A DNA stretch of 64,000 bases from an uncultured Woeseiaceae bacterium (GCA_964427415.1 CAYRUH010000006.1:7426-71425); one strand, 5' to 3'; numbered from the stretch's first letter, positions 4,758-64,000 are shown. Notes: generated by a model not told the origin, from the sequence alone. Program-made: numbers and translations.

Positions 4758-4764
4758 AGCCGCC

Positions 4765-47076: not shown

Positions 47077-47093
47077 TTTGCTGTTCGCCGGCT

Positions 47094-47189
47094 GTCTAAC
47101 GTTCGAGCACAGCCGTGGGCAGCATCATGCCGGTGACCGAGGGCTGCAACAAGGGGTCAGGCCACGCTGTGCGCCGCGCCCCGTTCAAG
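47094..47189 (-). other. attC-like recombination site (about 96 nt)
   Basis: Minus strand reads CTTGAAC (overlaps the TGA stop of ORF 47185..47631)-GGGGCGCG-GCACAGCGTGG...CCAC[G]GCTGTGC-TCGAAC-GTTAGAC. Terminal AAC/GTT triplets are present, the 3' core fits GTTRRRY, and the internal arms pair with one bulged G. Confidence 0.5.
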
Positions 47190-47631: not shown

Positions 47632-47655
47632 CGGGTGCCGCTTCCTTCCTTAGCT

Positions 47656-47720
47656 GCCTAACGCCTAACGCCTCGCTTCAGCCGCGCGACAATCGCCTCA
47701 GCTGCAAGCGTTGGTTATGC
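47656..47720 (-). other. attC-like recombination site (58-65 nt, 3' core duplicated)
   Basis: Minus strand reads GCATAAC-CAA-CGCTT[G]CAGC-TGAGGCGATTGTCGCGCG-GCTGAAGCG-AGGC-GTTAGGC-GTTAGGC. The 5' 7-mer is 6/7 complementary to the GTTAGGC core (GTTRRRY). The arms pair perfectly apart from one extrahelical G. The next ORF's RBS starts 4 nt downstream. Confidence 0.6.
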
Positions 47721-47756
47721 ATTGTTACATGAACCTTCGACGCCTGAATGCGGACA

Positions 47757-48527: not shown

Positions 48528-48939
48528 CGGCGTTCCTCGGAAACGGGGTTCCGAGACGGTCTCCGAGAGGGCAAGTCAGGTTCAAGTCGAAACCACCTCA
48601 AAAGGGCCGTTTTTGAAAATCAAATCAGACGCTTGGCTGCAGGCCCGGCGCAGTTAACCGGACAGTAGTGATGGCAGGACTAATTCGCGCATTACGTTTA
48701 CTTTGCCGTCGGATTAGCATTCTTCTTCTGGGCTCCACCAAGGATTGCTGCTGCAGCAGCTGCATAGATAGCTGCAACTGATCCGTAGATAGACGGCGTG
48801 CCGGGAATTGACGAAGACATTGCAATGCCGATAAACAGGCCAGCACCGCCGAAAGCAATTCCGGCGAGCGCATATGTGTATCTAGCCGTCGTTGTATTCC
48901 TTGTTCGGTGTCAAGAACGACTCGATCTATTGAAACCTA

Positions 48940-49028
48940 GCATAACGACGTACATGAGGGGCGTTTTTTTGGGAGGGTAGCCCGAAGGGCGCGGCAGGAA
49001 AACATCCCAGCCCATGTACTTGTTAGCC
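48940..49028 (-). other. attC-like recombination site (89 nt)
   Basis: Minus strand reads GGCTAAC-AA-GTACATGGGC...CCCCTCATGTAC-GTC-GTTATGC. The terminal 7-mers approximate RYYYAAC/GTTRRRY and are 5/7 complementary. There is a perfect 7-bp inner stem GTACATG/CATGTAC with flanking bulges. Confidence 0.6.
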
Positions 49029-49057
49029 ATCAAATACACCGCGGTAAACACGCTTGA

Positions 49058-49132
49058 TTAACCTCAATGTGGCAATAAATCAGGCCGCGATTTCCCGTTC
49101 GACTGCCTGATTTATTGCTACATTGAGGTTAC
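49058..49132. mobile_element. 75-bp miniature element made of two IS1380-type terminal inverted repeats (MITE-like, internally deleted IS)
   Basis: TAACCTCAATGTGGCAATAAATCAG (49059-49083) and its reverse complement with one mismatch (49107-49131), separated by 23 nt. The left about 50 nt match the left end of the IS remnant at 54982-55031 with 4 mismatches, including the last transposase codons (AVEREIAA* versus AVERAIAA*). Confidence 0.75.
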
Positions 49133-49240
49133 TCCCCTCTCTTATTCCGATTGTGCAAGCCTTTATACTACAAAAATAGCAGTAGTCAGGGATGTTGGAG
49201 TTCGCTAGGTTCCGGCAGGAGACAATGGGAGGATTCAGCA

Positions 49241-50542
49241 ATGCGATGGTTGTGCGGATTGGTACTGGTATTTTCAACGTTCAATTCCGGATTTATTGCA
49301 GCCGAAGCTACGGCATCGAACCAATCCGAAATTGTCGTTGCCTGGAATGAAGTCATTTTTAAGATGGCAGAGGCCGAGGACGGCTTTCTCACTCTGAAAG
49401 GGGTTCGTACGGCGGCAATGACACATCTCGCCATCCACGATGCGATATCGCACATCCACGATCAGTTCTCGACTGTCAGACATGACAAATCAGACAAAAA
49501 TGCAGAATCCGTCGCTGCAGCAAGCCAGGCCGCATTCACCATTGCCGTTGACCAGTATCCGGACCAATTAGCGACTCTCGACGCCCTAAATGATCGGTGG
49601 CTGGCAACTGTTGCGAGCGGAGGCGCGAAACAGAAGGGAATTGCGCTCGGTGAAGCGGCAGCGAATGCGGTTCTTAACGATCGAGCGGATGACGGCTGGG
49701 ATACCTCCGCCGACTACAAGTGGCACCCAATGGCCCCGGGGGTTTACGCAGAGTTTTCCGAGCACAGCGACACTCCGCAGGGTTTCATCTTTGGCGCTGG
49801 TTGGGGGAGTGCAAAAGGATTTGCATTAACGAGCCCGGATCAGTTTCGCTCGCCACCGCCGCCAACCATCGAAAGCGATGCCTACGCAAAGGCGTTTAAC
49901 GAAGTAAAATACGTTGGCCGATTCCAAAGCCTTGGTCGAAGCCCGGATCAGACTCATTTGGCGCTTTGGTGGAAAGACTTTGCGGAAAATTCGCACAATC
50001 GACTTGCGCGCGATCTCGCCATTAAAGAGAATCTGACACTATCCGAATCCGCAAGACTGTTCGCGTTGTTGAACGCGAGCATCTTCGACGCGTATGTCAG
50101 CGTATTCAATAACAAGTTTCACTACAATCATTGGCGACCTTATACCGCCATTCGCTGGGCGGCTAACGACGGCAACCCGAATACGGAGGCAGAGGAAAGC
50201 TGGACCAACACCCACCGCCACACCTATGCCTTTCCGTCCTATCCGTCAGCTCACGGAACAGCCTGTGCTGCAGCAATGTCCACGTTCGCAGAGGTGTTTG
50301 GAGACGATTACGCATTCACGATGCGCACTCCGATGGTCGATATCGCGGGACCGTTTTCCGGGAAGATCGAGATGCATCCGCCCACACGTGAGTTTGACAA
50401 TTTTTCCGAAGCTGCTGCGGAATGTGCCATCTCACGACTCTATCTAGGCATTCATTTTCGCTATGACTCCGATGCAGGTTATGAACTTGGTCAGCAAGTT
50501 GGACGCCAGGTGATCGAAAATCTACTGACACAAGTCCCGTAG
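49241..50542 (+). CDS. secreted PAP2-superfamily protein, vanadium-haloperoxidase / acid-phosphatase-like
   Basis: Start at ATG 49241 (MRWLCGLVLVFSTFNSGFIAAEA signal peptide). Three PAP2 motifs: KFHYNHWRP (KxxxxxxRP), PSYPSAHG (PSGH-type) and SRLYLGIHFRYD (SRxxxxxHxxxD). Confidence 0.8.
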   Translation: MRWLCGLVLVFSTFNSGFIAAEATASNQSEIVVAWNEVIFKMAEAEDGFLTLKGVRTAAMTHLAIHDAISHIHDQFSTVRHDKSDKNAESVAAASQAAFTIAVDQYPDQLATLDALNDRWLATVASGGAKQKGIALGEAAANAVLNDRADDGWDTSADYKWHPMAPGVYAEFSEHSDTPQGFIFGAGWGSAKGFALTSPDQFRSPPPPTIESDAYAKAFNEVKYVGRFQSLGRSPDQTHLALWWKDFAENSHNRLARDLAIKENLTLSESARLFALLNASIFDAYVSVFNNKFHYNHWRPYTAIRWAANDGNPNTEAEESWTNTHRHTYAFPSYPSAHGTACAAAMSTFAEVFGDDYAFTMRTPMVDIAGPFSGKIEMHPPTREFDNFSEAAAECAISRLYLGIHFRYDSDAGYELGQQVGRQVIENLLTQVP

Positions 50543-50681
50543 CCCTTCAAACGCGGAATAGTCACTCACGTTTGCCGCAAGAACGGTTGTACTGCGCAGA
50601 AGAGCCCGACGGCAACTGAACCAATTGGGCTTTCCACTTCGACAATACCGAACCGGAGACGCCGTCGGACTGAGCCTGTGC

Positions 50682-51257
50682 CTATCTTGGCTTCCACGTT
50701 TCCTTATCCATCACGAAATACTTTGCGTCGGGCGCGCTGGCAATGCGCTTGCCAAACGGCGTCATGCCCAGCCGCTCCATTACTTGAAACGACCCGGTGT
50801 TCGGTAAGTCGGCACCGGCGATAACTCGCGGTATCTCCAAGGTGTTGAATGAGTACTCGAGCAGTGCCGCTGACGCTTCGGTGGCATACCCCATCCCCCA
50901 AACGTTGGGGTGCAGTCCGTAGAGAAGTTCAACTTCACTCGACCCTTCAGGATGTCGAAGGGCAACAAAGCCTATAAGCTCGTTGCCGGCCGGGTGCGCG
51001 TTTTCACGCAGCGTCCAGAGACCCAGTCCTTCGTTTTTCGCGTCCTCCATGCTGGATACAACCGTTTCGCAGGCTCGCGAGGCTGAAATTTTCGCGTCGT
51101 CCCAAAGATACCTGCGAACTGCGGGCAGCGCCCAAAGTGCGTGGAGCCGACTGACATCTGCCTCCCTCACACGGCAGAGACTCAACCGCTCAGTGGTAAT
51201 GATCGCGCTCACAACCTCAAACTCCCACAGATCGCTCCAAGGCACGTAACACCGCAA
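50682..51257 (-). CDS. GNAT-family N-acetyltransferase (RimJ/RimL-like)
   Basis: 191-aa ORF. TERLSLCRVREAD...IGFVAL...WGMGYATEA...LEIPRVIAGADLPNTGSFQVMERLGM. The start may be an internal GTG. Confidence 0.85.
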   Translation of the reverse strand: MRCYVPWSDLWEFEVVSAIITTERLSLCRVREADVSRLHALWALPAVRRYLWDDAKISASRACETVVSSMEDAKNEGLGLWTLRENAHPAGNELIGFVALRHPEGSSEVELLYGLHPNVWGMGYATEASAALLEYSFNTLEIPRVIAGADLPNTGSFQVMERLGMTPFGKRIASAPDAKYFVMDKETWKPR

Positions 51258-51368
51258 GAGGTGGACATAGCCTTACGTCGCAATGGTCGTCGCAATATCA
51301 AGGCAATTGTCTTGACATCGATCCGCTTCACACTACATTTGAATCGCGATCGATGCGTACACACGAAC

Positions 51369-53915
51369 TCATGGCGGCGATACCGAAAAAGTCGCCGTCA
51401 CCGTGCGCGGTCCGTCCATGCTCTGGATGAAACAGCCCTCCTCGCCCTGGTCTTCGTCGCAGCCGCTCCAGCCGATACCGGTGGTGCCGGGTTCGGGAAT
51501 GGGGGTAAGCAGTACCGCCATGCCCAACGGAATTTCCTCGTCGCAGTCGTTGCCGTTCGTTCCGCACAGGATGCCGCCATCGGCGCCGCGGACGGTACCG
51601 CCGGGCCCGCCATTGATCAACACCTGCACGGTCAGCAGGGCGGTTTCTGTAGCAGTGTCGGTAACGTTCACACTCTCCGTCGTTTCGCTCGTGTTGCCAG
51701 CGTTGTCGGTGATTCTCAAGCGCGCCAGGTAGCTACCGGCGGCCGGATAACTGTGGCTCACGCTTTGGCCGCTGGCATCGAAGCTGCCGTCATCCTCAAA
51801 ATCCCACTGGTGGCTGGCGATGTCACCGGTCGAGTCCGCGGCGTCGAAGACGATGTTGGCATCGACGGTGGCGGGGTTCGGCGTGACGGTAAAGCTGGCG
51901 AGCAGTTCTGTTGGTGGCTCTCCCGGCTCTTCCGGCTCGCCGCGGCCGAAGCGGATCTTGCAATGCGTCGGGCCATTGACCTGCACGCTGGTAGTCAACA
52001 AGCCGGGGAAGCCGGTGCAGTCCCATTGCCATTGCGATTCACTGACAGAGGAGTTTTCATCCGGCGTCGCGGTCAGGGTCACCGTGGTGCCGGCCGGCAG
52101 ATTCTGCCAGCACATGATGCCGCGGCAATAGAGGGTTTGGTCGATGTCGGTGGTGGGGTCGGTGCCGCTGACGTCGCTGGTCACCTCGCCGCTGCCGAGG
52201 CCCTGTTTGTAAACGATGAGCCGGTGACCGATATCATTCACGCAGCTGTTGTCATCGCCCAGGGTCAGCACCGGTGTGGCACCCAGCGCGTTGATGCCGG
52301 TGCCGTCCCCGCGTTGGCCAGAAAGATTGTCGCCCCAGGCGTAGACGCGGCTGCCCAGGTCACGGCCCGTACCCGCTTCCTGGCAGGCGTTGATGTGGCG
52401 CCCAACGCTGACCGCCATGGCGTGGGAAGCACCCGCGGCGATCTGCCTGACGCCATCGAAATCGTTGTTGATCAACGGCGTGCTCAAGGCCTGGATGGGG
52501 GCAGGTTCCTGGACGACGCCGGCAATGCCCAGGCCGCCGCCCTGGCCCAAGCCAACGTCGCCCCATATCCAGACACTGCCTTCCGGGTCGCCGGTAACGG
52601 GGTCGCCGACGACTGCCGCCATACCAAATGCCCCGCCCGCGGCGATGCGCGAGACATTGCGCAAACCCGGAATGACGGCTGGCTCTGGGTCGCGGTCATT
52701 CGCAATGTCGGTGACACGCCCAAGCTGATTGCTATCGTTATCTCCCCAACTCCAGACACGATTTTCTCCATCGAGCGCCAGATAGAACGATCTCGCACCT
52801 ATCGATTCAGCGCCACCGGCCGCGATCTCACGTATATCCGGTAAACCATCTTTCACCTCCATGCTGTAACCTTCCGTGACAAGATCCTCGGGCTGATAAG
52901 CCTCCCAAACTTGATTGCTGTCATCCAGCGCCAAAAAGCCACCGCCGACATTGCGACCTCCTCCCGCGGCGATCGCCCTGATCCCATCGAGAAAGCCGTC
53001 TGCGGTAGGAATTGCAACCGGCACGAAGCCGTTATCCGGATAGACGGATTCGCCCTCTCGCTCGCGCACCCAGAGGGTCGTCAAAACGCCCCAGCCGAAA
53101 ACCTGGCCGTCACTGCGTAGCGCATACGACATGTCGTCGCCGGCCGCTACCGCCACGATATTGCCCAAGCCTGAGACCTGCACGGGAGTCTCTCGATCGG
53201 TATTAGTGCCGTCACCGAGAATACCGTCAATGTTTCTGCCCCAAGCCCATACCGCACCATCGGAATCCACAGCGACCGAATGAGAAGTCCCGCCGGCAAT
53301 CGCAACAATGTTGCTCAGATTGGCGATCCGCGCCGGCTGTGAACGATCTCGCCGAGAGCCATCGCCCAACTGGCCGCGGTCATTCGAACCCCAGGCCCAG
53401 ACACTGCCATCAGCGGTCAGCGCCAGAGAATGGGCCTCACCGGCCGCCAATTCGACGACCGGCGGCGCGGCTGCGGGCGATGCCAGAAACAGGTTGACGG
53501 GCACCTTCAAGGGCGTGCTGCCGCGGAATCCGCTCGCAGCGTAGTGATCATACTCGTGGTCGTCGGCGCTCAACCCCGCGTCAACGGTGCGCCACTCGCA
53601 GCCGACGTCGAAATCAGAGTCGGGGCAGGCTTCCGACGGGCCGATGTTGAGATACCGGGCCAACAACTCGGTTATGGTCAGTGTGCCGAAATCAAAACCC
53701 ACCGGATCGCCGGTAAAGGAGTCGACCGCGGTTGTTTCGACGGTTTCGCTTTCCCCCGGTCTTAGGACGACGGCCACGGGTTGCGATTGAAGAGTTGTGT
53801 TGTCGCCGATGGGAGTCGCTTCACCTCCTCCGACGTTGCCCTGCCCGCACCCGGCGAGAACGAGCAGCAAGAAAATGGCCATCAGGCGGGTCTTGTTGAT
53901 TGTTGCTTGGATCAT
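51369..53915 (-). CDS. RCC1-repeat (beta-propeller) lipoprotein with a PKD domain and two Cys-containing beta-repeat modules
   Basis: Start at ATG 53915 (MIQATINKTRLMAIFLLLVLAGCGQ lipobox). Repeated xVWAWGxNxxGQLGDG units (SVWAWGSNDRGQLGDG, AVWAWGRNIDGILGDG, RVWSWGDNDSNQLG, RVYAWGDNLSGQRGDG). The PKD-like segment is FTVTPNPATVDANIVFDAADS...HQWDFEDDG...SHSYPAAGSYLARLRITDNAGN. Confidence 0.85.
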   Translation of the reverse strand: MIQATINKTRLMAIFLLLVLAGCGQGNVGGGEATPIGDNTTLQSQPVAVVLRPGESETVETTAVDSFTGDPVGFDFGTLTITELLARYLNIGPSEACPDSDFDVGCEWRTVDAGLSADDHEYDHYAASGFRGSTPLKVPVNLFLASPAAAPPVVELAAGEAHSLALTADGSVWAWGSNDRGQLGDGSRRDRSQPARIANLSNIVAIAGGTSHSVAVDSDGAVWAWGRNIDGILGDGTNTDRETPVQVSGLGNIVAVAAGDDMSYALRSDGQVFGWGVLTTLWVREREGESVYPDNGFVPVAIPTADGFLDGIRAIAAGGGRNVGGGFLALDDSNQVWEAYQPEDLVTEGYSMEVKDGLPDIREIAAGGAESIGARSFYLALDGENRVWSWGDNDSNQLGRVTDIANDRDPEPAVIPGLRNVSRIAAGGAFGMAAVVGDPVTGDPEGSVWIWGDVGLGQGGGLGIAGVVQEPAPIQALSTPLINNDFDGVRQIAAGASHAMAVSVGRHINACQEAGTGRDLGSRVYAWGDNLSGQRGDGTGINALGATPVLTLGDDNSCVNDIGHRLIVYKQGLGSGEVTSDVSGTDPTTDIDQTLYCRGIMCWQNLPAGTTVTLTATPDENSSVSESQWQWDCTGFPGLLTTSVQVNGPTHCKIRFGRGEPEEPGEPPTELLASFTVTPNPATVDANIVFDAADSTGDIASHQWDFEDDGSFDASGQSVSHSYPAAGSYLARLRITDNAGNTSETTESVNVTDTATETALLTVQVLINGGPGGTVRGADGGILCGTNGNDCDEEIPLGMAVLLTPIPEPGTTGIGWSGCDEDQGEEGCFIQSMDGPRTVTATFSVSPP

Positions 53916-54054
53916 TGTTGGCTCCTTCGTCCTTGTAGGGAGTGCCCGACGGCATGTCGCTGGATCGATCCCCCCGAAGTCGAAAGGCACGACTCTAGCG
54001 GCGAGTTCTTGTATCAACTAGTATCGTTTCTGTAGTAACTCAGGAGCCGCGGCG

Positions 54055-54825
54055 ATGCCAACGCGTACACCGACGTCATCTACCTACGGACAATATTGTC
54101 CCCTTGCCCTCGCCGCCGAGCTGTTGTGCCGACGTTGGTCGATCCTGGTGATCAGCCGCGTGTTGGACGGCTGCCGGACGTACAGCGAGATCCATAGAGG
54201 CGTACCGAAGATCTCGCCGTCGCTGCTGTCGACGCGTCTGTCGGAGCTCGAGGATGCCGGGCTGATCCGGCGCGAAAAAATTAAGGGTGAGAAACGCTAT
54301 CGGTATCTGCCGACCGACGCTGGTGCGGACCTTGAGCCCGTGATCAACAGCATGGCTGTCTGGGGTCAGCAGTGGTCGCGGGATATGAAGATGGATGATC
54401 TCGATCCCGCTTTCCTCGCCTGGAGCATGTCAACGCGCATCGACATCGACGCAATGCCGCCGGGGCGTACCGTGATCGAGTTCGAGTTCTCTGGAACACC
54501 GGCCGGACTTCGGCGCTTCTGGTTGATTAGCGAAGACGGCAAGATCGACATGTGTTTGAAGGACCCGGGCTACGAGACAGATTTGTACGTCCGGTCGAAC
54601 ATGCGTCGATTCGTTGAGGCGTGGCGCGGTTTTCGCGATCTCAGAGCGGAGATACGCGCCGGCACTATTCGCTTGACGGGACCGAAAGCACTACGTTCGG
54701 CATTCCCGAACTGGATGCTGTTGAGCGGTCTTGCGATTCATCGACGCCGCGCGACTGGCCGCGAAAGCAAGTTGAGCGAATGCGGTCGAACGGTCAGGTT
54801 GAAACAGCGCGCTACAAAAGCATAG
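54055..54825 (+). CDS. HxlR-family winged-helix transcriptional regulator with a C-terminal extension
   Basis: 256-aa ORF. YCPLALAAELLCRRWSILVISRVLDGCRTYSEIHRGVPKISPSLLSTRLSELEDAGLI is the HxlR signature. Divergent from the RCC1 lipoprotein gene. Confidence 0.85.
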   Translation: MPTRTPTSSTYGQYCPLALAAELLCRRWSILVISRVLDGCRTYSEIHRGVPKISPSLLSTRLSELEDAGLIRREKIKGEKRYRYLPTDAGADLEPVINSMAVWGQQWSRDMKMDDLDPAFLAWSMSTRIDIDAMPPGRTVIEFEFSGTPAGLRRFWLISEDGKIDMCLKDPGYETDLYVRSNMRRFVEAWRGFRDLRAEIRAGTIRLTGPKALRSAFPNWMLLSGLAIHRRRATGRESKLSECGRTVRLKQRATKA

Positions 54826-54978
54826 CTGAAGCGGAAACCGGATTAATGCCCATTTGACCGACTGGGCCGAGGCCGGTGCATTCGAGAACGCCGCGGCCGC
54901 AACGATCGCGGCAGAACTTGCGGTATCTGATGAACGGTCCTTTACTATTCCCTGCAAGGCCATTTCGCAACCAGTGAC

Positions 54979-55726
54979 TAGCCTCAATGTCGCAATAAAT
55001 CAGGCCGCGATCGCCCGTTCGACGGCCTGAAACCGCTCCCGGATAATCGCGTTGCTGCCGACATCGAGGGTTGATCGGCCGTCGGGCCGCACGAGCAGGC
55101 CGGCCCGATTGATGAACTGATAACGCAAGGTGTGAATCGACTGGAACAGGCGGATCGTGCGGCGCTTGCGGTTCGAGCCTCGGCGCTCCGTTGTCCGGGT
55201 CTGCAGCGCGCGCATCAGATTGAACGCGAGAATGCTCATGATCTGCGAGGCGCTGTTGGCCTCGTAGCGCTGCGTCGGCACGCAGTCGAAGGCAAAGCCG
55301 CCCTTGAGCTCGCCGTAAACCTTCTCGTGAGTCCCGCGGCCGCAGAGGAAGAACCACAAGGTTCGCCCCGAGACCGGCTTGTTGGTCACGATCACCAGCA
55401 CCAAAAGCATCATTGGCACCGAACCGAAATCGCTGGCCGGCAACGCCGCCGGGGCGCCGCGCAGATGACCCTTGAAATCCAGCGCTCGAAGAAACCGGGC
55501 GATCAGCTCCAGCCCGGCGAACGACGTCAGCCCTGGCGCCTCGTAGCGCAGCGACAAATCTCCATTGATCCGGCGCCGCAAATCTGCTCTGCTTAACCTC
55601 ACGAGATGTGGCCTCTCCTGGATGGCTTTGTTTAGGTCTGCAAACCCAACAATACCAGCAGTGACGCCCATCTCGCCTTATCCCTTCACCCGATCAATCG
55701 CCCGGTTTTTGCAACATCGAGGTTAA
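54979..55726 (-). mobile_element. IS1380-family insertion sequence remnant (about 0.75 kb, internally deleted; transposase ORF 55000..55671)
   Basis: The 223-aa ORF keeps the N-terminal LTSFAGLELI motif. It also keeps the C-terminal R-x3-E-x6-K box (GRGTHEKVYGELK), the ANSASQIMSILAFNL segment and the TLRYQFINRAGLLVR tail. The central DDE region (about half the expected length) is missing. Terminal repeats are CCTCAATGTCGCAATAAATCAG (left) and TTTTTGCAACATCGAGG (right). Exact ends are uncertain by 3 nt either way. Confidence 0.75.
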
Positions 55727-55861
55727 CTATATCTATTTGACGATTATGTCATGAGAGAAAACTATCACAAGCGGCGAATAATGGATGAGGCGCGTCGGCA
55801 AGTTCCCGAATACTCTGAGGCTGATGGGGAGATATGTTTCGCGAACCAGTAGGCAGGATAT

Positions 55862-56050
55862 TTGACGTCATCGCAGCCGCCCAAATTGCTTGATCGGGTC
55901 CGCGAAACGATCCGGTTGCACCAGTACAGTGATCAAACAGAGAAGGCATATGTCAGCTGGATTCGACGCTGAATCATCTTCCACGGAAAGCGCCAGCCGG
56001 CGGACCTGGGCGCGATGGAGGCCACCGCTCGACGCGTGGAAGCTGGGGCG
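55862..56050 (+). pseudogene. intI: integron-integrase-type tyrosine recombinase, N-terminal SAM-like domain remnant
   Basis: My translation from TTG 55862 is LTSSQPPKLLDRVRETIRLHQYSDQTEKAYVSWIRR*IIFHGKRQPADLGAMEATA. It aligns residue for residue with the IntI1 segment [49 protein letters not shown]. An in-frame TGA replaces the conserved Phe. Homology is lost after about 56010, and the catalytic domain is absent because the next gene ends at 56107. Confidence 0.7.
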
Positions 56051-56106
56051 TTAACGCGGTGAGGAGTCCGATGGATACGTGATCCGGGCTTGCAGCTCTG
56101 CCGGCT

Positions 56107-58833
56107 TCAGCTTTGCTGGTCCAGCGCGCGGCGGAACGGCGCGATGATCCACTCCTGCATGCCGTCGCGTTCCATCGCGGCGATGGTCTTGCGGAGCAGC
56201 GCGGTGCCTTCTTCCCGGCGGCCGTCGAGAAGCAGCGCCCAGCCCCTGAGCGCATCGATGCGTGCCGGCCACTCATCGCCCGGGCTGCCCGCGGCGAGCT
56301 GCGCGGGGTCGAGGCCGTCGATCAGCGCCGTCGCCGCTCCGCCGTCGCCCGTGTCGAGCAGCCCCTGCGCCAGATAGTAGTTCATCACCTGCACGCCGGG
56401 AGTGCCCGGGCCCATCATGCGCTCGAAGACGTCGCGCGCGGCGACAAGTCTCGGGATGGCGTTACCGGCCTCGCCCAGCTGGACCAGGATGACGCCTTCA
56501 TTGCCTCCCGCCATGACGCAGGTGAGGTGGTCCGCGCCCTGAGTGGCACAGGTCGTTGCGCGCACATCGCTGATCAACGGCAGGGCTTCGGCCCAGCGCC
56601 CGCCCGCCGCGTAGAGATTACCGAGCACACTCTTGCCTTCTGCCAGTTGGTTCGAACCAGGGCCGAAGGCCGCGGCCAGTGCGCGGACGGCCTGGTTGAG
56701 CGCGAGCTCGGCGTCCTCGAGTCGTCCGGCATGCAGTAGCGCAGCGCCATAATGCAGTATTGCCGTCGCGCGGCTCGAGTCGGCGACGCCTGCCTCCGCG
56801 AAGCGCGCTTCATCCTGCAGCGATTCGAGCAAATCCACCGCTTCGTCCTGGCGGCCGCTGCGGACATACCCCTGAGCAAGGTCCAGTTTGAGCCCGTGTC
56901 TGGCGCGCGCGTTGTCCGGCCCCGCACGATCGAGCCGCGCCAGCGCTTCTTCGTAATAGGTCACGGCCGGTTCGATCTGCGCCTGCATCAGGTGCAGGCG
57001 TCCGCGCGCACGCGCCGCGGCGAGGGCGACGGCGTCGTCCTGCTCGAGCAGCGCCGCGGCATGCCGGTCGGCGTCATCCAGAACCTCGGCTGCTGCGGCG
57101 TAGTCAGAGGCGTTGACCAGCGATTCGCCGAGCCGGTAACCGGCCACGAGCGTCCGTGGATGATCGGGCCCGAGCATCGTTGCAAACAGTGACGCCACCC
57201 GGCGGTGATGTTCAGCGGCGGTCCTGAAGTCCTGGAGGCCGGTGTAGATTTCCCCCGCAGTCTCGCGGATCGTCGCTTCCATGGCGGGATCGGCGGCGAA
57301 ACGGGCCTCGATGCGATCCGCCGCACGGGAGAGCGCTTCCCGCAGCGTCGCGTCATAGCCGGCGCCGGGTTCACGCGGATCCGCATTTATCATGATGTCG
57401 CGCAGGAACGTTGCCGTGGCCTCGGCGCGTGCGGCCTGTTCCAGGGCTGTGTGCTGAGCCGCTCTCGCCCGCAGAAAGAGGAGGCTGCTGGCGGCAACGC
57501 CAACCAGCAGTACGACGCCTGCCGCAATGGCCCAGGGACGGCGCGAGCGGGCGCGCTCGAGCGCCGCCTGGGCGGCGAGTGCCCGTGATTCCGCTGCTTC
57601 CAGTCGTGCGCGCTCGCGACGGCGCTCCTCGAGCCCGCGCAGGCGCTGCGCCAGTTCAGAGGCAGAGACGATTCGCTGCGCGGGATTGCCGGCGGTCGCC
57701 CCGGCGATATCCAGTGCGACCAGCTCGTCGGCAATGTCGCTTTCCCAGCCGGTGGTGAGCGGTCTGCCGAGGTCGGCCGCGAGTATCTGATACAGCAGCA
57801 TGCCGAGTGCGTAGACGTCGCTCTTTACCGTGGCTGCCTCGCCGGCGATGATCTCCGGGGCGATATAAAGCGGGGTGCCGAAGCTCGAATCGCTGGTGGA
57901 GTCCACCGTCCGCGTGAGCCCGAGGGGCGTCACGCCCAGTTCGCCCAGTCGTCCGGGTTCCATCAGGCGGCCGCTGCCGAAATCGGTGAGCCGCACCTGC
58001 ACTCTGCCGTCGCCATCCTCTTCGATCAGGATGTTGGCGGGTTTCAGGTCCTTGTGCAGCACGCCCACGTCATGGGCGGCGGCGACTGCGTCGATCGCCT
58101 GCAGGGCAAGCTCCAGTCGTGCCTGCGGCGCCAGTGCGGCGAGCCTGGCGTTATCTTCAGCCCAGGCCGGCAGACTGTCTCCGCCATACTCGCACTCGAG
58201 AAAAAACGGCTCGCTTTCGAAGTTCCAGTCGACGACACGCACGATATCGGCGCGCTCACCGAGTGCTTCGCGCAGGATGCGTGAGAGCGTCGCCTCGCGC
58301 TTGAGCGCGGCCAGTCTTTCGCCGTCCGGGCTGAACTTGTAGACCCGGTGCTCGCCGGTCTTGCCGTGGCGGGCGAGCCATACCTCGCTGGCGCCGGCGC
58401 CGGAAAGCTGGCGCGTCAGGCGGAAGTTCGGCCGGCCGGGAACAGCCTGACCGGTCTTCAGGTCGTGCTGGCTGACGAGACGCCGGCCCGCCGCGACACG
58501 CTCCACCTTGCCATCGAGTCGGTATCCGATGCGGGGCTTGGTGACGATGAATCCGGCGTTGGCCTCGCCGAGTGCCTTGCGCAATTTGGCCACCGCATTG
58601 GCAAGCACATTCTCGACAGTGATGCGGCCTTCCCAGACGGTGTCGAGGAGTTCTTCCTTGGTGACGACTTCGCCGGCATGACGGAGCAGGGTACTCAGCA
58701 CCTCGAGGGGGCGGCGTTCGAGCTCGACGGGCAGTCCGGCCACCCGCAGCTCGAAGCGCGATTCGTCAAACTCTGCCGCGCCGAAACGGTAGAGATAAAG
58801 CGCCCCGTGGCGCGACGGCTCCGAATCGCTCAT
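56107..58833 (-). CDS. hybrid regulator: OmpR/PhoB-type winged-helix DNA-binding domain + Ser/Thr protein kinase + TM segment + TPR sensor region
   Basis: 908-aa ORF. wHTH: LEVLSTLLRHAGEVVTKEELLDTVW...TKPRIGYRL. Kinase: G-loop SGAGASEVW, VYKF lysine, HKDLKPANIL, TDFGSG, YIAPE. TM: WAIAAGVVLLVGVAASSLLFL. About 430 aa of TPR-like repeats follow. Confidence 0.85.
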   Translation of the reverse strand: MSDSEPSRHGALYLYRFGAAEFDESRFELRVAGLPVELERRPLEVLSTLLRHAGEVVTKEELLDTVWEGRITVENVLANAVAKLRKALGEANAGFIVTKPRIGYRLDGKVERVAAGRRLVSQHDLKTGQAVPGRPNFRLTRQLSGAGASEVWLARHGKTGEHRVYKFSPDGERLAALKREATLSRILREALGERADIVRVVDWNFESEPFFLECEYGGDSLPAWAEDNARLAALAPQARLELALQAIDAVAAAHDVGVLHKDLKPANILIEEDGDGRVQVRLTDFGSGRLMEPGRLGELGVTPLGLTRTVDSTSDSSFGTPLYIAPEIIAGEAATVKSDVYALGMLLYQILAADLGRPLTTGWESDIADELVALDIAGATAGNPAQRIVSASELAQRLRGLEERRRERARLEAAESRALAAQAALERARSRRPWAIAAGVVLLVGVAASSLLFLRARAAQHTALEQAARAEATATFLRDIMINADPREPGAGYDATLREALSRAADRIEARFAADPAMEATIRETAGEIYTGLQDFRTAAEHHRRVASLFATMLGPDHPRTLVAGYRLGESLVNASDYAAAAEVLDDADRHAAALLEQDDAVALAAARARGRLHLMQAQIEPAVTYYEEALARLDRAGPDNARARHGLKLDLAQGYVRSGRQDEAVDLLESLQDEARFAEAGVADSSRATAILHYGAALLHAGRLEDAELALNQAVRALAAAFGPGSNQLAEGKSVLGNLYAAGGRWAEALPLISDVRATTCATQGADHLTCVMAGGNEGVILVQLGEAGNAIPRLVAARDVFERMMGPGTPGVQVMNYYLAQGLLDTGDGGAATALIDGLDPAQLAAGSPGDEWPARIDALRGWALLLDGRREEGTALLRKTIAAMERDGMQEWIIAPFRRALDQQS

Positions 58834-58957
58834 GGGACTTGCCGCTCCCTGTCTGGAATGCGCCCAGAGGTGATGGCCGGCGCGTCAACGCGTTCCGCGC
58901 GTCTTCCGAAGCGCCGTGGGCAGACACAAGCCTCTGATCCGTCGCAACAATCTAGCG

Positions 58958-58977
58958 CGTTAGCAATCCGTTAGCAA
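58958..58977. promoter_or_regulatory. Tandem direct repeat CGTTAGCAA-n2-CGTTAGCAA (11-bp period); candidate binding site for the adjacent winged-helix regulator
   Basis: Read directly at 58958-58966 and 58969-58977. It lies in the 289-bp divergent intergenic region between the hybrid regulator (start 58833) and the membrane-protein/lipoprotein pair (start 59123). Confidence 0.4.
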
Positions 58978-59122
58978 CGCGTGAAGGTTTCGGTGACGGA
59001 CTGCGTCATCTTGCTGCGTGGCGGCCCCTATCAGAGGGATAGCGGAGTCTCCCGCGCCAGGCAGCGCGGCCGCCGCGCATCAAGTGAGCATCGAACGTGG
59101 AAACAGAAGAAGGAATAACGAC

Positions 59123-59509
59123 ATGAAAATTGCAATCGTCATACTGGCTGTTCTCGGGGCGCTGTCCTCGGGGTTTCTGGGGGTCAACTGGATGAACGAT
59201 CTGGGCGCGCTTGGCGAGATGAGCGAGCTGGAACGGATGGCGGCCAAGTCCATGGCTGCCGCGCAGGGACAGTCGCTGGACAAGATGGGCGCGGCGGCCT
59301 TCATCCTCATCTTCGGCGCCATGGCGGGATTCGTCGGCGCCTTCTTCGCGATGAAGAATCGCCACTCGCTCGCCGGCGGGCTGCTCCTCGGCGCCGGCAT
59401 CCTGCCCGTTCTGGTCCAGCCGCAGGCCGTGGTGTTCACGGCGTTACTGATCATCGGCGGTGGGCTCGCGTTTTTCATGCATTCGAAGAGCAAGGCGGTA
59501 GCATCATGA
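59123..59509 (+). CDS. hypothetical integral membrane protein (4 TM)
   Basis: 128 aa from ATG 59123 (MKIAIVILAVLGALSSGFLGV...). GGAATAA SD-like sequence upstream. ATGA overlap with the next ORF. Confidence 0.6.
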   Translation: MKIAIVILAVLGALSSGFLGVNWMNDLGALGEMSELERMAAKSMAAAQGQSLDKMGAAAFILIFGAMAGFVGAFFAMKNRHSLAGGLLLGAGILPVLVQPQAVVFTALLIIGGGLAFFMHSKSKAVAS

Positions 59510-60705
59510 AAGCCCCATATCTGCCGATAATCGGGGTCATCGCTCTCGCCGCCGCCTGTGGCGGGGCCGGTGACAAGGATCGGGCGCGATACGTCGCTGC
59601 CTGCATCGCCGGTGGCGATACGGAAACCGAGTGCGCCTGTCAGGGCGATACGCTCCTGGGCCAGCTCGACGAGCCGACCTTTACCGCGCTCGCTGACTTC
59701 GCCGAGGGCATGGCCGAAGCGAGCGCTGACGCCCAGGGCCGGATCGCCATGGGCGCGCTGACCAATCCGCAGCTGGTGTCCGCGCTCGATAAGACGGAAG
59801 CGGCGGCGCGGACCTGCAAACAGGCAGCGGCACTGGAAGCGGCCAGGGCCGAGGTCATCGCGATCGAGGCGGTGCGGGAGCAGCGCCGCAAGCAGGCTGC
59901 CGCACGCAAGTGCCCGCATACGCCTGCCATGGGTCCGCTGCTGCCGGGCATGCCGGTGCATGATGTGGCGGATCTGCGCCCGGGCATGAGCTTCGAGGAT
60001 GTGGAAGCCGTGCTCGAGTGCCGCGGCAATATTCTCAGCTTCGACGTCGCCGAGAGCTGGGTGCGCAAGACTCAGGGCCTGGCCACGCGGCAGCTGCTGC
60101 GCGCGGCGGATGGCGACATCTGTCCGGCCGAGGCGCGGATCGCAGGCGGCGAGGCCTGCGAGGACGGCGGCTACGACTTCGAGCCGCTGCAGAATGTCGG
60201 CGAGGAGTTCATGGTGGCTTTCACGGGTCTGCCGCAAGCAGAGCGTGCGGGGATCATCTGGCGGCGAACGGTTTTTTCCGCCGACGAGTATCCGACCGTC
60301 TCGTCACTGCGCGAAGCACTGACCGCCAAATACGGGCAGCCGCATCTGGCGGCGAATCAGGAGGGCTATTACAGCCCGGGCCACCGTCGCGGCTCGCTGA
60401 CCTATAGCTGGGTCTATGACCCGTCGCAACGGCCGATCCCGGATAGCGACGGCACCCTTCGCTCCCGTTGCGTGAGTGGTCCGCGCCCGACATTCGAGCG
60501 TCAGATGAGCTGGAATACCGGCTGCGGTATCACCGTGCGAGCCGAGATCATGCCGGCACCGGGGAATACGGTACTCGCCAGCGAACTGAATGTCGTGGTC
60601 GTGGACCAGAAGCGCTTCAATGATGCCGTGGGTCAGTTCGACGTCGATCTGAAAGCGGCCGTGGAGGCCCAGCACGCAGGCAAGGGGGCGGCGCCGGATC
60701 TCTGA
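59506..60705 (+). CDS. hypothetical Cys-rich lipoprotein
   Basis: 399-aa ORF. Lipobox VIALAAAC. Ten further cysteines are spread through the mature part. No family recognised. Confidence 0.65.
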   Translation: MKAPYLPIIGVIALAAACGGAGDKDRARYVAACIAGGDTETECACQGDTLLGQLDEPTFTALADFAEGMAEASADAQGRIAMGALTNPQLVSALDKTEAAARTCKQAAALEAARAEVIAIEAVREQRRKQAAARKCPHTPAMGPLLPGMPVHDVADLRPGMSFEDVEAVLECRGNILSFDVAESWVRKTQGLATRQLLRAADGDICPAEARIAGGEACEDGGYDFEPLQNVGEEFMVAFTGLPQAERAGIIWRRTVFSADEYPTVSSLREALTAKYGQPHLAANQEGYYSPGHRRGSLTYSWVYDPSQRPIPDSDGTLRSRCVSGPRPTFERQMSWNTGCGITVRAEIMPAPGNTVLASELNVVVVDQKRFNDAVGQFDVDLKAAVEAQHAGKGAAPDL

Positions 60706-60710
60706 TCCGG

Positions 60711-60730
60711 CCTCGCCGCGGCCGCGGCGA
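60711..60730 (+). terminator. perfect 20-nt GC-rich palindrome (possible transcript-end hairpin, no U-tract)
   Basis: CTCGCCGCGG/CCGCGGCGAG begins 6 nt after the lipoprotein stop. Not a canonical intrinsic terminator. Confidence 0.3.
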
Positions 60731-60957
60731 GCGGCTCCTGCGAAAAAACGGAGTTTCCGGGCGCTTCTAATGGGATCCTCCGGCTTGCGAAAATGTACGA
60801 TGACGCTCGGCCGGAGGATCAACCCGCCAGCAGTGCCGGTCTCAGGGCGATTTCCAGCGGTATCATGTGAGCGAGTTTTTCCGCCGCCTCCGGATCGTGA
60901 TTATCGCGGCACTGCAACCGATCGATCAGCGTGCCTTAATCGTCTCCCAGCCCAACG

Positions 60958-61404
60958 TCATCGCCTTGCCCGGAATGCGTTGAATAAACGTATGCTACCG
61001 AGCAGTACGAATGGAAGACCTGTGACAGCAAATAGGGTTGCTTTAGCCCAAAGCCGGAGGAAGGAGGCCACGATTGGCGGACGTTGATCAAGTGGGTCGT
61101 AGCGCACGGAGATGCTTTCACCGATCTCGTAGAGCCGGCCCCCTGCGCCTACCTGGCTCGTAAAGCGCCGCGCACGACCAGCCTGGTCGGTGAACTCCAC
61201 AACGGGGTAGTACAGCAGCGCTGACACCTTGCTGGGCGCCGACTCGTAGCCGGATTCATAATCGACAACGATACCCGGTACCGCCTTCATTCCATCCAGT
61301 AGGTCGGCAGATGCGGTCCATGCCTGCAGCGCATGGTACCAGGGGACCAGACCGACCATTAAGAGGATCAAGGGCGGTAGAACACGTCGATTATTTTCGT
61401 CCAT
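60958..61404 (-). CDS. DUF3592-like membrane protein (TM - beta domain - TM)
   Basis: 148 aa from the internal ATG 61404 (MDENNRRVLPPLILLMVGLVPWY...YYPVVEFTD...RYDP...). Upstream track codons are Arg/Pro-rich and overlap the cysteine-synthase 3' end. Confidence 0.55.
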   Translation of the reverse strand: MDENNRRVLPPLILLMVGLVPWYHALQAWTASADLLDGMKAVPGIVVDYESGYESAPSKVSALLYYPVVEFTDQAGRARRFTSQVGAGGRLYEIGESISVRYDPLDQRPPIVASFLRLWAKATLFAVTGLPFVLLGSIRLFNAFRARR

Positions 61405-61583
61405 GTGTAGTCCTGTAGCCCAACGAACCGGCTTATCGATAAAGGCCATTGGACGTCTTCCGTGACGTCTCCTGCAATTCGCTCCCGATACCGATATCTC
61501 CGGCGGCGCCGTCGCCACCCGTGGCCGCGCAGCTCTCTTCTTTGAGCGAAATGTACCGAGGTTCGCCCCCTGAATGATCAATA

Positions 61584-61605
61584 TAGTAGGGCCTTCAGGC
61601 CCGAT
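61584..61605. repeat. REP-like hairpin, 21/22 identical to 40216..40237, same orientation
   Basis: TAGTAGGGCCTTCAGGCCCGAT. The TTCA loop carries the (reverse-strand) TGA stop of the cysteine-synthase-like gene, and the stem encodes its last residues D-R-A. Confidence 0.75.
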
Positions 61606-62611
61606 CCCGCCGTCCGTCCAGCCACTCCGGCAGCGACAGCCCCTTGGACTCCAGATAGGCGCCGTTGAACAGCCGCTCGCGGTAGCGCATGGCGCCGTCG
61701 CAGAGGACTGTGACGATAACGTGACCCGGACCCAGCTCACGCGCCATGGCCATGGCTCCGCCCACATTGATGCCGCTGGAACCGCCGAGCACGAGGCCTT
61801 GCTGGCGGATCATGTCGTAGACCAGCGGGATGGCTACTTCATCCGTTATGCGGTAGGCCAGGTCGATGGCGGCGCCTTCGAGATTGGCGGTGATGCGCGA
61901 GTTGCCGATACCCTCGGTAATGGAGCTGCCTTCGATCTTTATCTCACCGTTCCTGTAGAGCTCGTACAGCCCGGAGCCGCCCGGATCGGCCAGGCCGATC
62001 TTCACCTCCGGTTTGCACGCCTTCAGATACTGCGACACGCCGGCCAGCGTGCCGCCGGTGCCGACGGCGCAGATGAAAGCGTCCATTTCGCCGTCGGTCT
62101 GGTCCCAGATCTCCGGGCCGGTGGTCTCGGCGTGGAAGTCCCGGTTGGCGGTGTTGTCGAACTGGTTCGGCCAAAAGGCACTGCCCGGCTCCCGCGCGTT
62201 CATCTCCTCGGCCATGCGGCCGGAGACGTGGACGAAGTGGTTGGGGTCGCGAAAGGGCACGGCGGGGATGAGCCTGACGTCGGCGCCGTAGGTGCGCAGC
62301 GTGTCGATCTTCTCTTTGCTCTGGGTGTCCGGCATGACGATGATGCTCGGATGCCCCAGTGCATTGCCGACCATGGCCAGCCCGATACCGGTGTTGCCTG
62401 CCGTGCCCTCGATGATGGTGCCGCCGGGCTTCAGCTCGCCGGTGGCCTGGGCACGGCGCACCATGCCGAGCGCAGCGCGGTCTTTCACCGAGCCGCCCGG
62501 GTTCATGAACTCGGCCTTGCCGAGGATCTCGCAGCCGGTTTCCTCGGACGCCCGGTTCAGCCGAATCAGGGGCGTCGCGCCGATGGCGTCGATGAGCTGC
62601 CGCGCGTCCAT
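61595..62611 (-). CDS. cysteine synthase / O-acetylserine sulfhydrylase-like PLP enzyme (fold-type II, no CBS domains)
   Basis: 338-aa ORF. NPGGSVKDR, TAGNTGIGLA and GTGGTLAGV motifs. Confidence 0.85.
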   Translation of the reverse strand: MDARQLIDAIGATPLIRLNRASEETGCEILGKAEFMNPGGSVKDRAALGMVRRAQATGELKPGGTIIEGTAGNTGIGLAMVGNALGHPSIIVMPDTQSKEKIDTLRTYGADVRLIPAVPFRDPNHFVHVSGRMAEEMNAREPGSAFWPNQFDNTANRDFHAETTGPEIWDQTDGEMDAFICAVGTGGTLAGVSQYLKACKPEVKIGLADPGGSGLYELYRNGEIKIEGSSITEGIGNSRITANLEGAAIDLAYRITDEVAIPLVYDMIRQQGLVLGGSSGINVGGAMAMARELGPGHVIVTVLCDGAMRYRERLFNGAYLESKGLSLPEWLDGRRDRA

Positions 62612-62625
62612 GGCGATGTCCTTCC

Positions 62626-63711
62626 TCAGTGCCCGGTGAGTGCCGCGAGCTGGTCGGCCTGATATTCGCGGGTGAGCGGGTCGATGATCGGCTCCAGGCT
62701 GCCTTGCAGCACTTCGTCCAGTTTATAAAGCGTCAGGTTGATGCGATGGTCCGTCACCCGGCCCTGGGGATAGTTGTAGGTGCGGATGCGCTCGGAGCGG
62801 TCGCCGGATCCCACCAGGAGCTTGCGGGTCTCGGCCCGTTCGGTGGCCAGCACCTCTTCCTCGGCGGCCACCAGCTTCGCCTGCAGCAGAGCCAGCGCCC
62901 GCGCCCGATTCTTGTGCTGGGAGCGTTCGTCCTGACATTCCACCACGATGCCGCTGGGCAGGTGGGTGATGCGCACCGCGGAGTCGGTCTTGTTCACGTG
63001 CTGGCCGCCGGCGCCGGACGCCCGGTAGGTATCCACGCGGAGGTCCGAGGGGTTTATCTCGATCTCGCCTACTTCCTCTGCCTCGGGCAGGACGGCAACC
63101 GTGCAGGCGGAAGTGTGGATGCGGCCCTGGGATTCGGTCTCCGGCACCCGCTGCACGCGGTGGGCGCCGGACTCGAACTTCATCTGCGCGTATACATTGC
63201 GGCCGCTCACCTTGCAGATGAGTTCCTTGTAGCCGCCTTGCTCGCCCTCGCTGGCAGAGAGCACCTCGATGCGCCAGCCTTTCGTCTCGGCGTAGCGCGA
63301 GTACATGCGGAACAGGTCACCGGCGAAGATGGCGGCCTCGTCGCCGCCGGTGCCGGCGCGTATCTCGAGATAGGCGTCGCTCTCGTCCTTCGGGTCTTTC
63401 GGTACCAGGGCCAGTTCGAGTTCGCGCTCGAGAGTCTCGCGTTCGGCCTCCAGCCGTTCGGCTTCCTCGCGGCCCATCGCCCGCATGTCGGCGTCGGCAT
63501 CCTTCGCCATCTCCTCCGCCGCGGCCAGGTCGTCGACGAGGTCACGGTAGCGTCGGAACAGCGTCATTACCGGCTCCAGCTGCGCGTACTCTTTGGAATA
63601 GTCACGGAAGCGGTCCTGCGTCGCGATGACGTCGCGGTCGGCGAGCAGCCCGGCGAGTTCCTCGAACCGGTCGGCGAGACCCTGGAGCTTTTGTTCGATG
63701 CTGGCTTTCAC
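62626..63711 (-). CDS. prfA: peptide chain release factor 1
   Basis: 361-aa ORF. Contains the PET (PxT-class) tripeptide in [10 protein letters not shown] and the GGQ motif ([11 protein letters not shown]). Confidence 0.95.
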
Positions 63712-63736
63712 GGGGGGGCCGTCGCTGCGGCCGGGC

Positions 63737-64000
63737 TCAGGAACGGTTCTTTTTGTCGTCGTTCAGGCCGAAGAGTTCCCGGGCCGAGAGCATGATGGCC
63801 TCGTCGGACTCCTCGCCGGCCTGGCGCAGCCGCTCGCTGGGCTTGTGCAGCATCTTGTTCATCAGCGTGGAGGCCAGGTACTGGAGCGCGGCTTCCGGGT
63901 CGCCGCTGTTGGCCAGCCGTCGTATCGCCTGTTCGAGCACCTCCTGCTTCAGCACCTCTCCGCGGCCACGGATGGACTTGATGAGGGGCACGGCGTCCAG
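63737..64000 (-). CDS. hemA: glutamyl-tRNA reductase, C-terminal part (gene continues past the right edge)
   Basis: The C-terminal dimerisation helix sequence ...[41 protein letters not shown] is typical of HemA. Conserved hemA-prfA order. Confidence 0.8.

Follow-up and report, generated by a model that had tools for sequence, protein, structure and literature searches.

We analysed a 64,000-nucleotide stretch of DNA from an uncultured Woeseiaceae bacterium (GCA_964427415.1, CAYRUH010000006.1:7426-71425; hereafter the window), in which the minus strand of 56107-58833 encodes a single protein that joins a winged-helix DNA-binding domain, a Hanks-type Ser/Thr kinase, a transmembrane (TM) helix and a periplasmic tetratricopeptide-repeat (TPR) domain. 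The reading frame runs without interruption from the ATG at 58833 to the stop codon at 56107-56109 and specifies 908 amino acids (aa), and no paralogous second copy was found elsewhere in the 64-kb window. Phased direct repeats in front of the gene form a predicted operator. The features of gene, protein and operator, with the evidence for each in brackets, are as follows.

56107-58833, minus strand: complete gene for the 908-aa winged helix-turn-helix/Hanks kinase/TM/TPR protein (open reading frame (ORF) listing)
58516-58797, minus strand: OmpR/PhoB/CadC-type winged-helix DNA-binding domain, residues 13-106 (Pfam, PDB sequence matches, AlphaFold2 (AF2) model)
58567-58620, minus strand: predicted recognition helix, residues 72-89, TVENVLANAVAKLRKALG, with specificity positions N75, N79 and A82 (near-invariance in the family, covariation with the operator)
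58435-58515, minus strand: conserved linker, residues 107-133 (column conservation, AF2)
57649-58434, minus strand: Hanks-type Ser/Thr kinase domain, residues 134-395 (Pfam Pkinase, Foldseek, residue invariance)
57538-57648, minus strand: helical Arg/Glu-rich juxtamembrane segment RLRGLEERRRERARLEAAESRALAAQAALERARSRR, residues 396-432 (ORF sequence, AF2)
57469-57537, minus strand: single TM helix, residues 433-455 (hydropathy maximum, AF2)
56110-57468, minus strand: periplasmic domain, residues 456-908, 453 aa (Pfam TPR models, AF2)
58958-58984, minus strand: predicted operator of three direct-repeat units phased at 11 bp (conservation upstream of homologues, covariation with the protein)

Both profile and fold identified the N-terminal domain as a winged helix of the OmpR/PhoB type. 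PF00486 (Trans_reg_C) matched residues 35-106 with 55.7 bits against a gathering cut-off of 26.2 (E = 5e-15), and the best PDB sequence matches were response-regulator DNA-binding domains together with the CadC DNA-binding domain 5ju7 (E = 5e-10). In a full-length ColabFold/AF2 model built from 63 homologues (mean predicted local distance difference test score, pLDDT, 85.9), the domain comprises a four-strand sheet, three helices and a wing hairpin at a pLDDT of ~86-92, with strands at 11-17, 20-23, 28-31, 34-36, 96-99 and 103-106 and helices at 40-51, 59-67 and 75-93. The linker that follows contains a predicted strand at 111-117 (pLDDT 73-78). For the kinase, PF00069 (Pkinase) matched residues 148-353 with 84.8 bits (gathering cut-off 31.7, E = 8e-24), and the motifs HKDLKPAN (260), DFG (284), GTPLY (319) and APE (325) can be read in the protein; its key residues are K166, E180, H260-K261-D262, N267, D284-F-G, T302 and T307 in the activation segment, A325-P-E, D339 and R387. 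AF2 predicted a kinase fold in which the activation loop (307-318) is disordered, and the top Foldseek matches of this fold in the PDB were Stk1, PknB and PknA (target TM-score 0.7-0.75). A Foldseek search of the PDB with the full-length model recovered isolated kinase domains and none spanning the whole architecture. Among NCBIfam models, PknB-like kinases matched the middle of the protein, and CadC and PhoB matched the N-terminal domain alone.

Hydropathy analysis gave one strong TM segment at 433-455 (mean Kyte-Doolittle 2.5). In the AF2 model a juxtamembrane helix at 401-428 and a disordered stretch at 428-434 precede it, and a continuous helix at 435-483 spans the membrane and extends into the periplasm. 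One hydrophobic segment, at a median position of 432, was likewise found in most of 76 homologues. Since DNA binding and ATP-dependent catalysis need the cytoplasm, the C-terminal 453 residues were placed in the periplasm. Pfam and AF2 both identified tandem helical repeats making a solenoid, as in TPR proteins, whose helix-turn-helix repeats have ~34 aa: TPR_12 matched with 40.1 bits (cut-off 30.1), several other TPR models matched below cut-off between 521 and 890, and the model is an all-helical, TPR-like alpha-solenoid of ~410 aa and ~20 helices (~497-905) with a pLDDT mostly >90. A homology search with the periplasmic domain alone returned five matches and was uninformative on other outputs that use the same sensor.

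These results can be set against a preliminary description of the locus that had been made from its sequence alone. The order it gave, from OmpR/CadC winged helix through Hanks kinase and TM helix to TPR, is borne out by Pfam, AF2 and the PDB matches, with Trans_reg_C, Pkinase and TPR all exceeding their gathering cut-offs in the Pfam check that it had suggested. The hydropathy peak at 433-455, the AF2 helix and the segments in homologues agree with its view that DNA binding and kinase activity are cytoplasmic and that a single TM helix is present. It had the DNA-binding domain fused directly to the kinase; instead, a conserved linker of ~27 aa lies between them. Its periplasmic TPR region of ~430 aa stands as to the TPR assignment but not as to the extent, since the periplasmic part has 453 aa, with helical repeat at ~497-905. 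Its statement that all catalytic motifs are present was right for the catalytic residues, which are invariant, but overlooked a degenerate glycine-rich loop and a non-RD HKD loop, as detailed below.

The preliminary description had also treated 56107-58833 as one gene, which an assembly frameshift would contradict. The same protein, identical in sequence, was called on a contig of an independent Logan assembly and is also present in NCBI. All 120 top database homologues have ~900 aa and match these three Pfam families as well. In cultured isolates and in metagenome-assembled genomes (MAGs), full-length homologues number in the hundreds and agree in length and domain order. The identical protein in an independent assembly and the full-length homologues thus rule out a frameshift or misassembly, and to the idea that sequencing error had fused two or three genes we assign a practically negligible probability. 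At least 583 relatives with this architecture came from a scan that took one genome for each GTDB species; this answers the survey that the preliminary description had called for. The closest among the matches listed were a Woeseiaceae MAG (85%), Lentisalinibacter orientalis (84%) and Thioalkalivibrio sp. XN8 (80%). Further relatives occur in Lysobacterales/Xanthomonadales (Luteimonas, Pseudoxanthomonas, Thermomonas, Dokdonella, Rhodanobacter, Dyella and Rudaea), in Nevskiales and Steroidobacterales, and in Hyphomonas (Hyphomonadaceae). When 1.84 billion cluster representatives were searched with the winged helix, linker and kinase N-lobe (residues 1-215), 642 50%-identity clusters matched at E <= 1e-30; the best 150 of these 642 have ~900 aa, save shorter entries that are probably fragments. 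The architecture is therefore one gene of a large, widespread bacterial family.

Conservation was then considered within this family. In 63 database homologues and 76 genome-derived sequences, K166, E180, H260-K261-D262, K264, N267, D284-F-G, T320, A325-P-E, D339 and R387 are invariant. The protein thus combines a Hanks-kinase profile with the catalytic Lys, Glu, Asp and Asn, DFG, APE, Asp IX and Arg XI, and the invariance of the catalytic residues indicates that the kinase is under selection for catalysis. T302 is conserved in 75 of the 76 sequences, T307 in 65 and T320 in all 76; by analogy to PknB, T302 and T307 are plausible autophosphorylation sites. The canonical pair of GxGxxG and HRD was not found. 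The glycine-rich loop reads LSGAGASEVW (family consensus xSxGSEVW), and the catalytic loop is HKD, that is non-RD, in 139/139 sequences. These family-specific deviations are not known to rule out kinase activity. Mean column conservation was 0.75 for the winged helix and 0.75 for the kinase N-lobe, 0.67 for the linker, which is thus similar to the folded domains, and 0.47 for the TPR domain, the least conserved part of the protein. Such a pattern would be expected for a diversifying sensor attached to a preserved, tightly coupled DNA-binding and kinase unit.

The fusion gene is separated from a divergent gene for a 128-aa membrane protein by a 289-bp intergenic region, in which the predicted operator sits 125-151 bp from the regulator ATG and 139-165 bp from the membrane-protein gene start. 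Its units are TCACG (58984-58980), TAACG (58973-58969) and TAACG (58962-58958). They include TTGCTAAC-gga-TTGCTAAC (58959-58977, minus strand), in which 8 bp recur exactly as a direct repeat at a period of 11 bp; this sequence is unique in the window, where 0.05 matches are expected by chance, and the 64-kb window holds a single operator site. The repeat at 58958-58977, which the preliminary description had picked out as the target for an electrophoretic mobility shift assay, belongs to this conserved operator.

The operator was surveyed in 80 loci, comprising 1.02 Mb of locus DNA. TAAC-N7-TAAC occurred 49 times, and 42 of these sites, in 37 loci, fell within 300 bp upstream of the fusion gene, a region that makes up 2.4% of the sequence; 39 of the 42 were co-oriented with the fusion gene. 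A position weight matrix (PWM) derived from the TAAC sites had its best match in the whole locus within 320 bp upstream in 51 of the 80 loci, and this held in 14 loci that had given no site to the matrix. Aligned, the sites show three phased units, T[C/A]ACG-N6-TAACG-N6-TAACG (class I). In 23 loci without class I, the same position is occupied by TCACG-N6-TCAAG-N6-TCAAG (TTCAAG-N5-TTCAAG; class II). Phased units were thus present upstream in 67/80 loci vs 0.47 (maximum 3) in shuffled upstream regions, and control tetramers in this test gave none upstream. The held-out Amphiplicatus and Iodidimonas loci each contain exactly one TAAC-N7-TAAC per ~12.7 kb, at -146 and -127. As the repeats are co-oriented with the regulator gene, they point to autoregulation as the primary output.

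Some further features of these upstream regions are recorded here. A sigma-70 scan of the window's intergenic region returned nothing above threshold. Below the scanner threshold, a weak sigma-70-like TTGCTA-N17-TAGATT (58949-58977, minus strand; 8/12 matches) overlaps units 2 and 3 of the operator; other loci show no such pair at a constant offset, and a promoter role is a possibility. Dokdonella ginsengisoli (locus L038) has tandem fusion-gene paralogues at about 2920-3510 and 6001-8577, of which the upstream copy is preceded, ~170 bp before its start, by a triple GTAAC operator; none was found before the downstream copy. Among the few TAAC-N7-TAAC sites that depart from the usual placement, one lies at L038, upstream of a tandem paralogue.

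We next made a full-length comparison of the proteins from loci of class I (TAAC) and of class II (TCAA); the P values given here ignore kinship among loci. Seven positions were conserved within each class and different between the classes, namely 15, 75, 79, 82, 93, 459 and 817. Five of the seven lie in the 94-aa winged helix (hypergeometric P = 1.9e-4) and three in the 18-aa recognition helix (P = 2.2e-4), and none lies in the linker or the 255-aa kinase. Residues 75, 79 and 82 are spaced i, i+4, i+7 and so share one helix face. Position 79 is N in 34/34 class I loci and T in 23/23 class II loci, and the combinations of residues 75 and 79 go with particular operator units:

K75: operator unit G-TAAC (23 of 24 units)
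N75: operator unit C-TAAC (43 of 44 units)
A75 with N79: operator unit AAAC (2 loci)
H75 with N79: operator unit TCAC (2 loci)
H75 with T79: operator unit TCAA, as TCAAG (21 loci)

The split of K75 and N75 between G-TAAC and C-TAAC gave a Fisher P of 3e-17, again with kinship ignored. On a neighbour-joining tree of residues 134-908 only, which leaves out the winged helix, sequences with the T79/TCAA state occur at two or more separate places, and a large class II clade has N79 states nested inside it. The states switch several times on the tree, so the pattern of operator and helix is not a single split. This covariation is the strongest in-silico support for a winged helix that reads the phased repeats, and it argues for binding at the protein's own divergent promoter.

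On the other side of the operator lie the genes of the divergent operon:

59123-59509, plus strand: small membrane protein of 128 aa, first gene of the operon (weak match to Pfam DUF4064, E = 2e-4, below cut-off)
59506-60705, plus strand: lipoprotein A, 399 aa, with lipobox LAAAC and 11 conserved Cys (homologues at other loci)

The start of the lipoprotein A gene overlaps the preceding gene by 4 nt, and the two are therefore probably co-transcribed. In 33 of the 80 loci, from Alpha- and Gammaproteobacteria, a lipoprotein A homologue (~350-400 aa) is encoded upstream of the fusion gene and divergently from it, and a second family, lipoprotein B (~270 aa, absent from the window), takes this place in 26; these loci include Hyphomonas, Pseudoxanthomonas, Thermomonas, Rhodanobacter and Steroidobacteraceae. 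Locus L022 has genes for both A and B, at 3938-4999 and 3133-3960 on the minus strand. When neighbours were clustered across the 80 loci, lipoproteins A and B were the only ones widely conserved, in a clustering that did not annotate neighbours individually for sigma factors such as the ECF gene that adjoins the kinase gene in PknS-EcfK (STK/ECF43) pairs. The search for recurring neighbours suggested by the preliminary description is thus answered by these two families. Neither had a match in a Pfam search, and a Foldseek search of the PDB with an AF2 model of lipoprotein A (pLDDT 84) gave nothing significant (best E 0.026, TM < 0.3).

The closest loci conserve the 128-aa membrane protein, and so do Amphiplicatus and Iodidimonas; the Iodidimonas protein has 58% identity, and lipoprotein A has not been kept there. 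In Amphiplicatus, an alphaproteobacterium, positions 2546-7742 of locus L081 correspond to 56107-60705 of the window, with the regulator at 78% identity, lipoprotein A at 69% and the 128-aa protein also present. This trio sits in an unrelated genomic context, from which it appears that the genes travel as a cassette, and the comparison suggests that the whole cassette moved horizontally between Alpha- and Gammaproteobacteria.

Upstream of the cassette, 60958-63991 encodes a DUF3592 membrane protein, a PALP (cysteine-synthase-like) enzyme, prfA and the 3' end of a hemA-like gene, a synteny common to Lentisalinibacter and the Woeseiaceae loci L001 and L011. On the other flank, the GC content is 0.55-0.62 across 46000-56000 vs ~0.67-0.70 elsewhere, and the drop ends at the 3' end of the fusion gene. 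Within this segment lie a truncated DDE transposase (55000-55671, minus strand), whose match to DDE_Tnp_1_4 is confined to the C-terminal third, a regulator of the HxlR family (54055-54825, plus strand) and a lipoprotein of 882 aa with RCC1 repeats and a PKD domain (51369-54017, minus strand). The segment is probably a horizontally acquired island inserted beside the regulator gene. Within 56090-60822, many ORFs of 100-390 aa, such as 59080-60237 (minus strand) and 56113-56739 (plus strand), use other frames or the opposite strand and overlap the real genes; these are typical of DNA with ~68% GC and are not genes.

How might sensor, kinase and DNA-binding domain work together? OmpR/PhoB domains bind head-to-tail to direct repeats spaced by about one helical turn, driven by dimerisation of the phosphorylated receiver, and receptor kinases of the PknB type are activated by sensor-driven N-lobe dimerisation and trans-autophosphorylation. 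Combining the two makes a kinase-gated model the most economical by analogy. We propose that the protein is a membrane-anchored one-component regulator, whose winged helix would bind the three phased T[A/C]ACG repeats and whose kinase-gated oligomerisation would switch the divergent promoter region, and we regard this as reasonably probable. The Hanks kinase, placed between DNA-binding domain and membrane, would do the job of the receiver domain in OmpR/PhoB regulators. The periplasmic TPR solenoid would bind the signal, for which a protein or a component of the envelope is probable and the co-encoded lipoprotein a possible candidate, and binding would change the oligomeric state of the receptor. 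The kinase domains would then associate and trans-autophosphorylate on T302 and T307 in the activation segment, and the winged helices, held on the kinase N-lobes by the conserved linker, would be aligned head-to-tail on the phased repeats. From this position they would switch the transcription of both the regulator gene and the divergent envelope operon. We infer the binding of the operator from covariation, and gating could be by phosphorylation or by kinase-domain dimerisation. More tentatively, the family might represent a Ser/Thr counterpart of the two-component system in one polypeptide, in which the kinase serves as a receiver-like oligomerisation switch and an evolvable code at 75/79/82 insulates paralogues.

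Several observations fit this proposal poorly. The glycine-rich loop is degenerate family-wide, so ATP binding could be atypical, and non-RD loops such as HKD often go with kinases that are not regulated by activation-loop phosphorylation. A cognate PP2C phosphatase or FHA partner was not seen among conserved neighbours in the 80-locus clustering. On the DNA side, three repeat units, not two, misfit a simple dimer, and class II is largely one clade. Three Nevskia loci (L026, L035 and L037) carry inverted CTAAC repeats at ~-190 to -220, yet have T79, and in Tahibacter soli (L053) an operator-like site lies 3' of the gene (~+2730). Furthermore, alignment of the operators revealed neither a -10 nor a -35 element at a constant offset, and for this reason activation and repression are not distinguishable.

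Other roles for the kinase were weighed against kinase-gated DNA binding. All are compatible with the operator result, because they differ only in what the kinase does. The kinase might signal in trans to separate substrates, such as a transcription factor, a sigma factor or envelope enzymes, with the winged helix serving for kinase-independent autoregulation. The operator was indeed found only beside the regulator's own gene, with a single site in the 64-kb window, and the kinase core is closest to PknB, Stk1 and PknA. Moreover, Xanthomonas citri PknS (Xanthomonadales), which has a periplasmic TPR domain and the same kinase-TM-periplasmic-TPR layout, controls transcription by phosphorylating a separate extracytoplasmic function (ECF) sigma factor, EcfK. 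However, the equal conservation of winged helix and N-lobe, the two best conserved parts of the protein, and the nearly as high conservation of the linker suggest tight structural coupling, the architecture is rigid in that members without the winged helix are absent among the top matches, and the 80-locus clustering showed no conserved neighbour resembling a substrate. We consider signalling in trans unlikely, though it deserves attention as an alternative.

It would be quite improbable, in our view, that the kinase is a non-catalytic, pseudokinase-like scaffold, for dimerisation or as a spacer, passing a TPR-driven conformational change to the winged helix. The family-wide loop deviations and the lack of a detectable phosphatase partner nearby would fit such a role, but K166, E180, D262, N267, D284 and the APE and GT motifs are invariant in 139 sequences, which would be unexpected in pseudokinases. 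Another route from membrane to DNA would be proteolysis in the juxtamembrane/TM region, freeing a soluble winged-helix/kinase fragment. The predicted disorder at 428-434 would leave room for it, and the cleavage-dependent activation reported for CadC (PMC11484849) provides a precedent, as do RIP-controlled factors. Against this, neither a site-1 nor a site-2 protease gene was noted among the conserved neighbours, and the position of the operator, beside genes whose products are membrane or secreted proteins, suits a tethered regulator capturing DNA in its vicinity; we regard cleavage as having only a slim chance of being correct.

Among known systems, the protein resembles the ToxR/CadC-like regulators (ToxR, TcpP, CadC, PsaE and VtrA) in its N-terminal cytoplasmic winged helix, one TM helix and periplasmic sensor, and in the gene for an envelope-protein partner that is often adjacent. 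ToxR and CadC are precedents for membrane-tethered winged helices acting on DNA. Unlike these regulators, it has a Hanks kinase of ~260 aa and a conserved linker between DNA-binding domain and membrane, and its sensor is a TPR solenoid; ToxR and CadC are without a phosphotransfer module, and in such regulators the signal reaches the DNA-binding domain via a cytoplasmic linker that is short or unstructured. With the same topology but with an enzymatic module before the TM helix, it is a variant, not a typical member, of this group. With receptor Hanks kinases (M. tuberculosis PknB/PknA, S. aureus Stk1, X. citri PknS) it shares the kinase fold and the order of kinase, TM helix and extracytoplasmic sensor. 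It differs from them in that a transcription factor is fused in cis at the N-terminus rather than being a separate substrate, and in its HKD and degenerate glycine-rich loops. OmpR/PhoB response regulators are alike in the DNA-binding fold, in a target, here predicted, of tandem direct repeats with an 11-bp period (cf. pho boxes) and in an adjoining module capable of phosphorylation. However, the present protein has no receiver or Asp phosphorylation, its DNA-binding domain is N-terminal, not C-terminal, and it is anchored in the membrane. Membership of the response regulators was rejected, as no Response_reg match was found in Pfam/NCBIfam and such models match via the DNA-binding domain alone.

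EmbR and AfsR, of the Streptomyces antibiotic regulatory protein (SARP) type, also have an OmpR-like winged helix under the control of Ser/Thr phosphorylation (EmbR by PknH and others), but their kinase is a separate protein, and SARPs carry BTAD and FHA or NB-ARC domains. None of these three domains matched here in Pfam at E up to 1, and SARP membership was rejected. The hybrid two-component systems of Bacteroides likewise combine sensing in the periplasm, a kinase and a DNA-binding output within a single membrane protein (PMC10269533); they use a His-Asp phosphorelay and an AraC domain where the present family has a Ser/Thr kinase and a winged helix, and the domain order and the phyla differ.

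The preliminary description had called the architecture poorly characterised, and this agrees with the literature. Full-text searches for the architecture, its Pfam names, ToxR-like regulators with a kinase, kinome censuses and non-RD kinases did not find a study characterising the family. In one census of transmembrane transcription regulators, a supplementary table gives Pkinase for 27 of ~50,000 proteins, without comment, and a 2025 atlas of bacterial Ser/Thr kinase families does not mention DNA-binding fusions. Proteins of this architecture already have database entries with generic names; newly contributed here are the predicted operator, with its two main classes, and the code of the recognition helix.

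The usual view is that Hanks kinases of bacteria act on transcription indirectly, by phosphorylating separate regulators (EmbR, response regulators, EcfK), and that membrane-bound regulators with a winged helix, ToxR and CadC among them, pass on a signal with no chemical modification. The present family unites the two in one chain. It offers a tractable system for coupling Ser/Thr phosphorylation or kinase dimerisation to promoter occupancy, because sensor, kinase, DNA-binding domain and predicted operator are defined, the operator adjoins the gene, and the residues predicted to confer specificity can be exchanged. The recognition code would provide a route to predicting the targets of hundreds of unstudied regulators, and perhaps a basis for orthogonal membrane-to-DNA sensors. 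If the family is indeed a Ser/Thr counterpart of the two-component system, an extracytoplasmic TPR sensor would control promoter occupancy directly from the membrane via Ser/Thr autophosphorylation.

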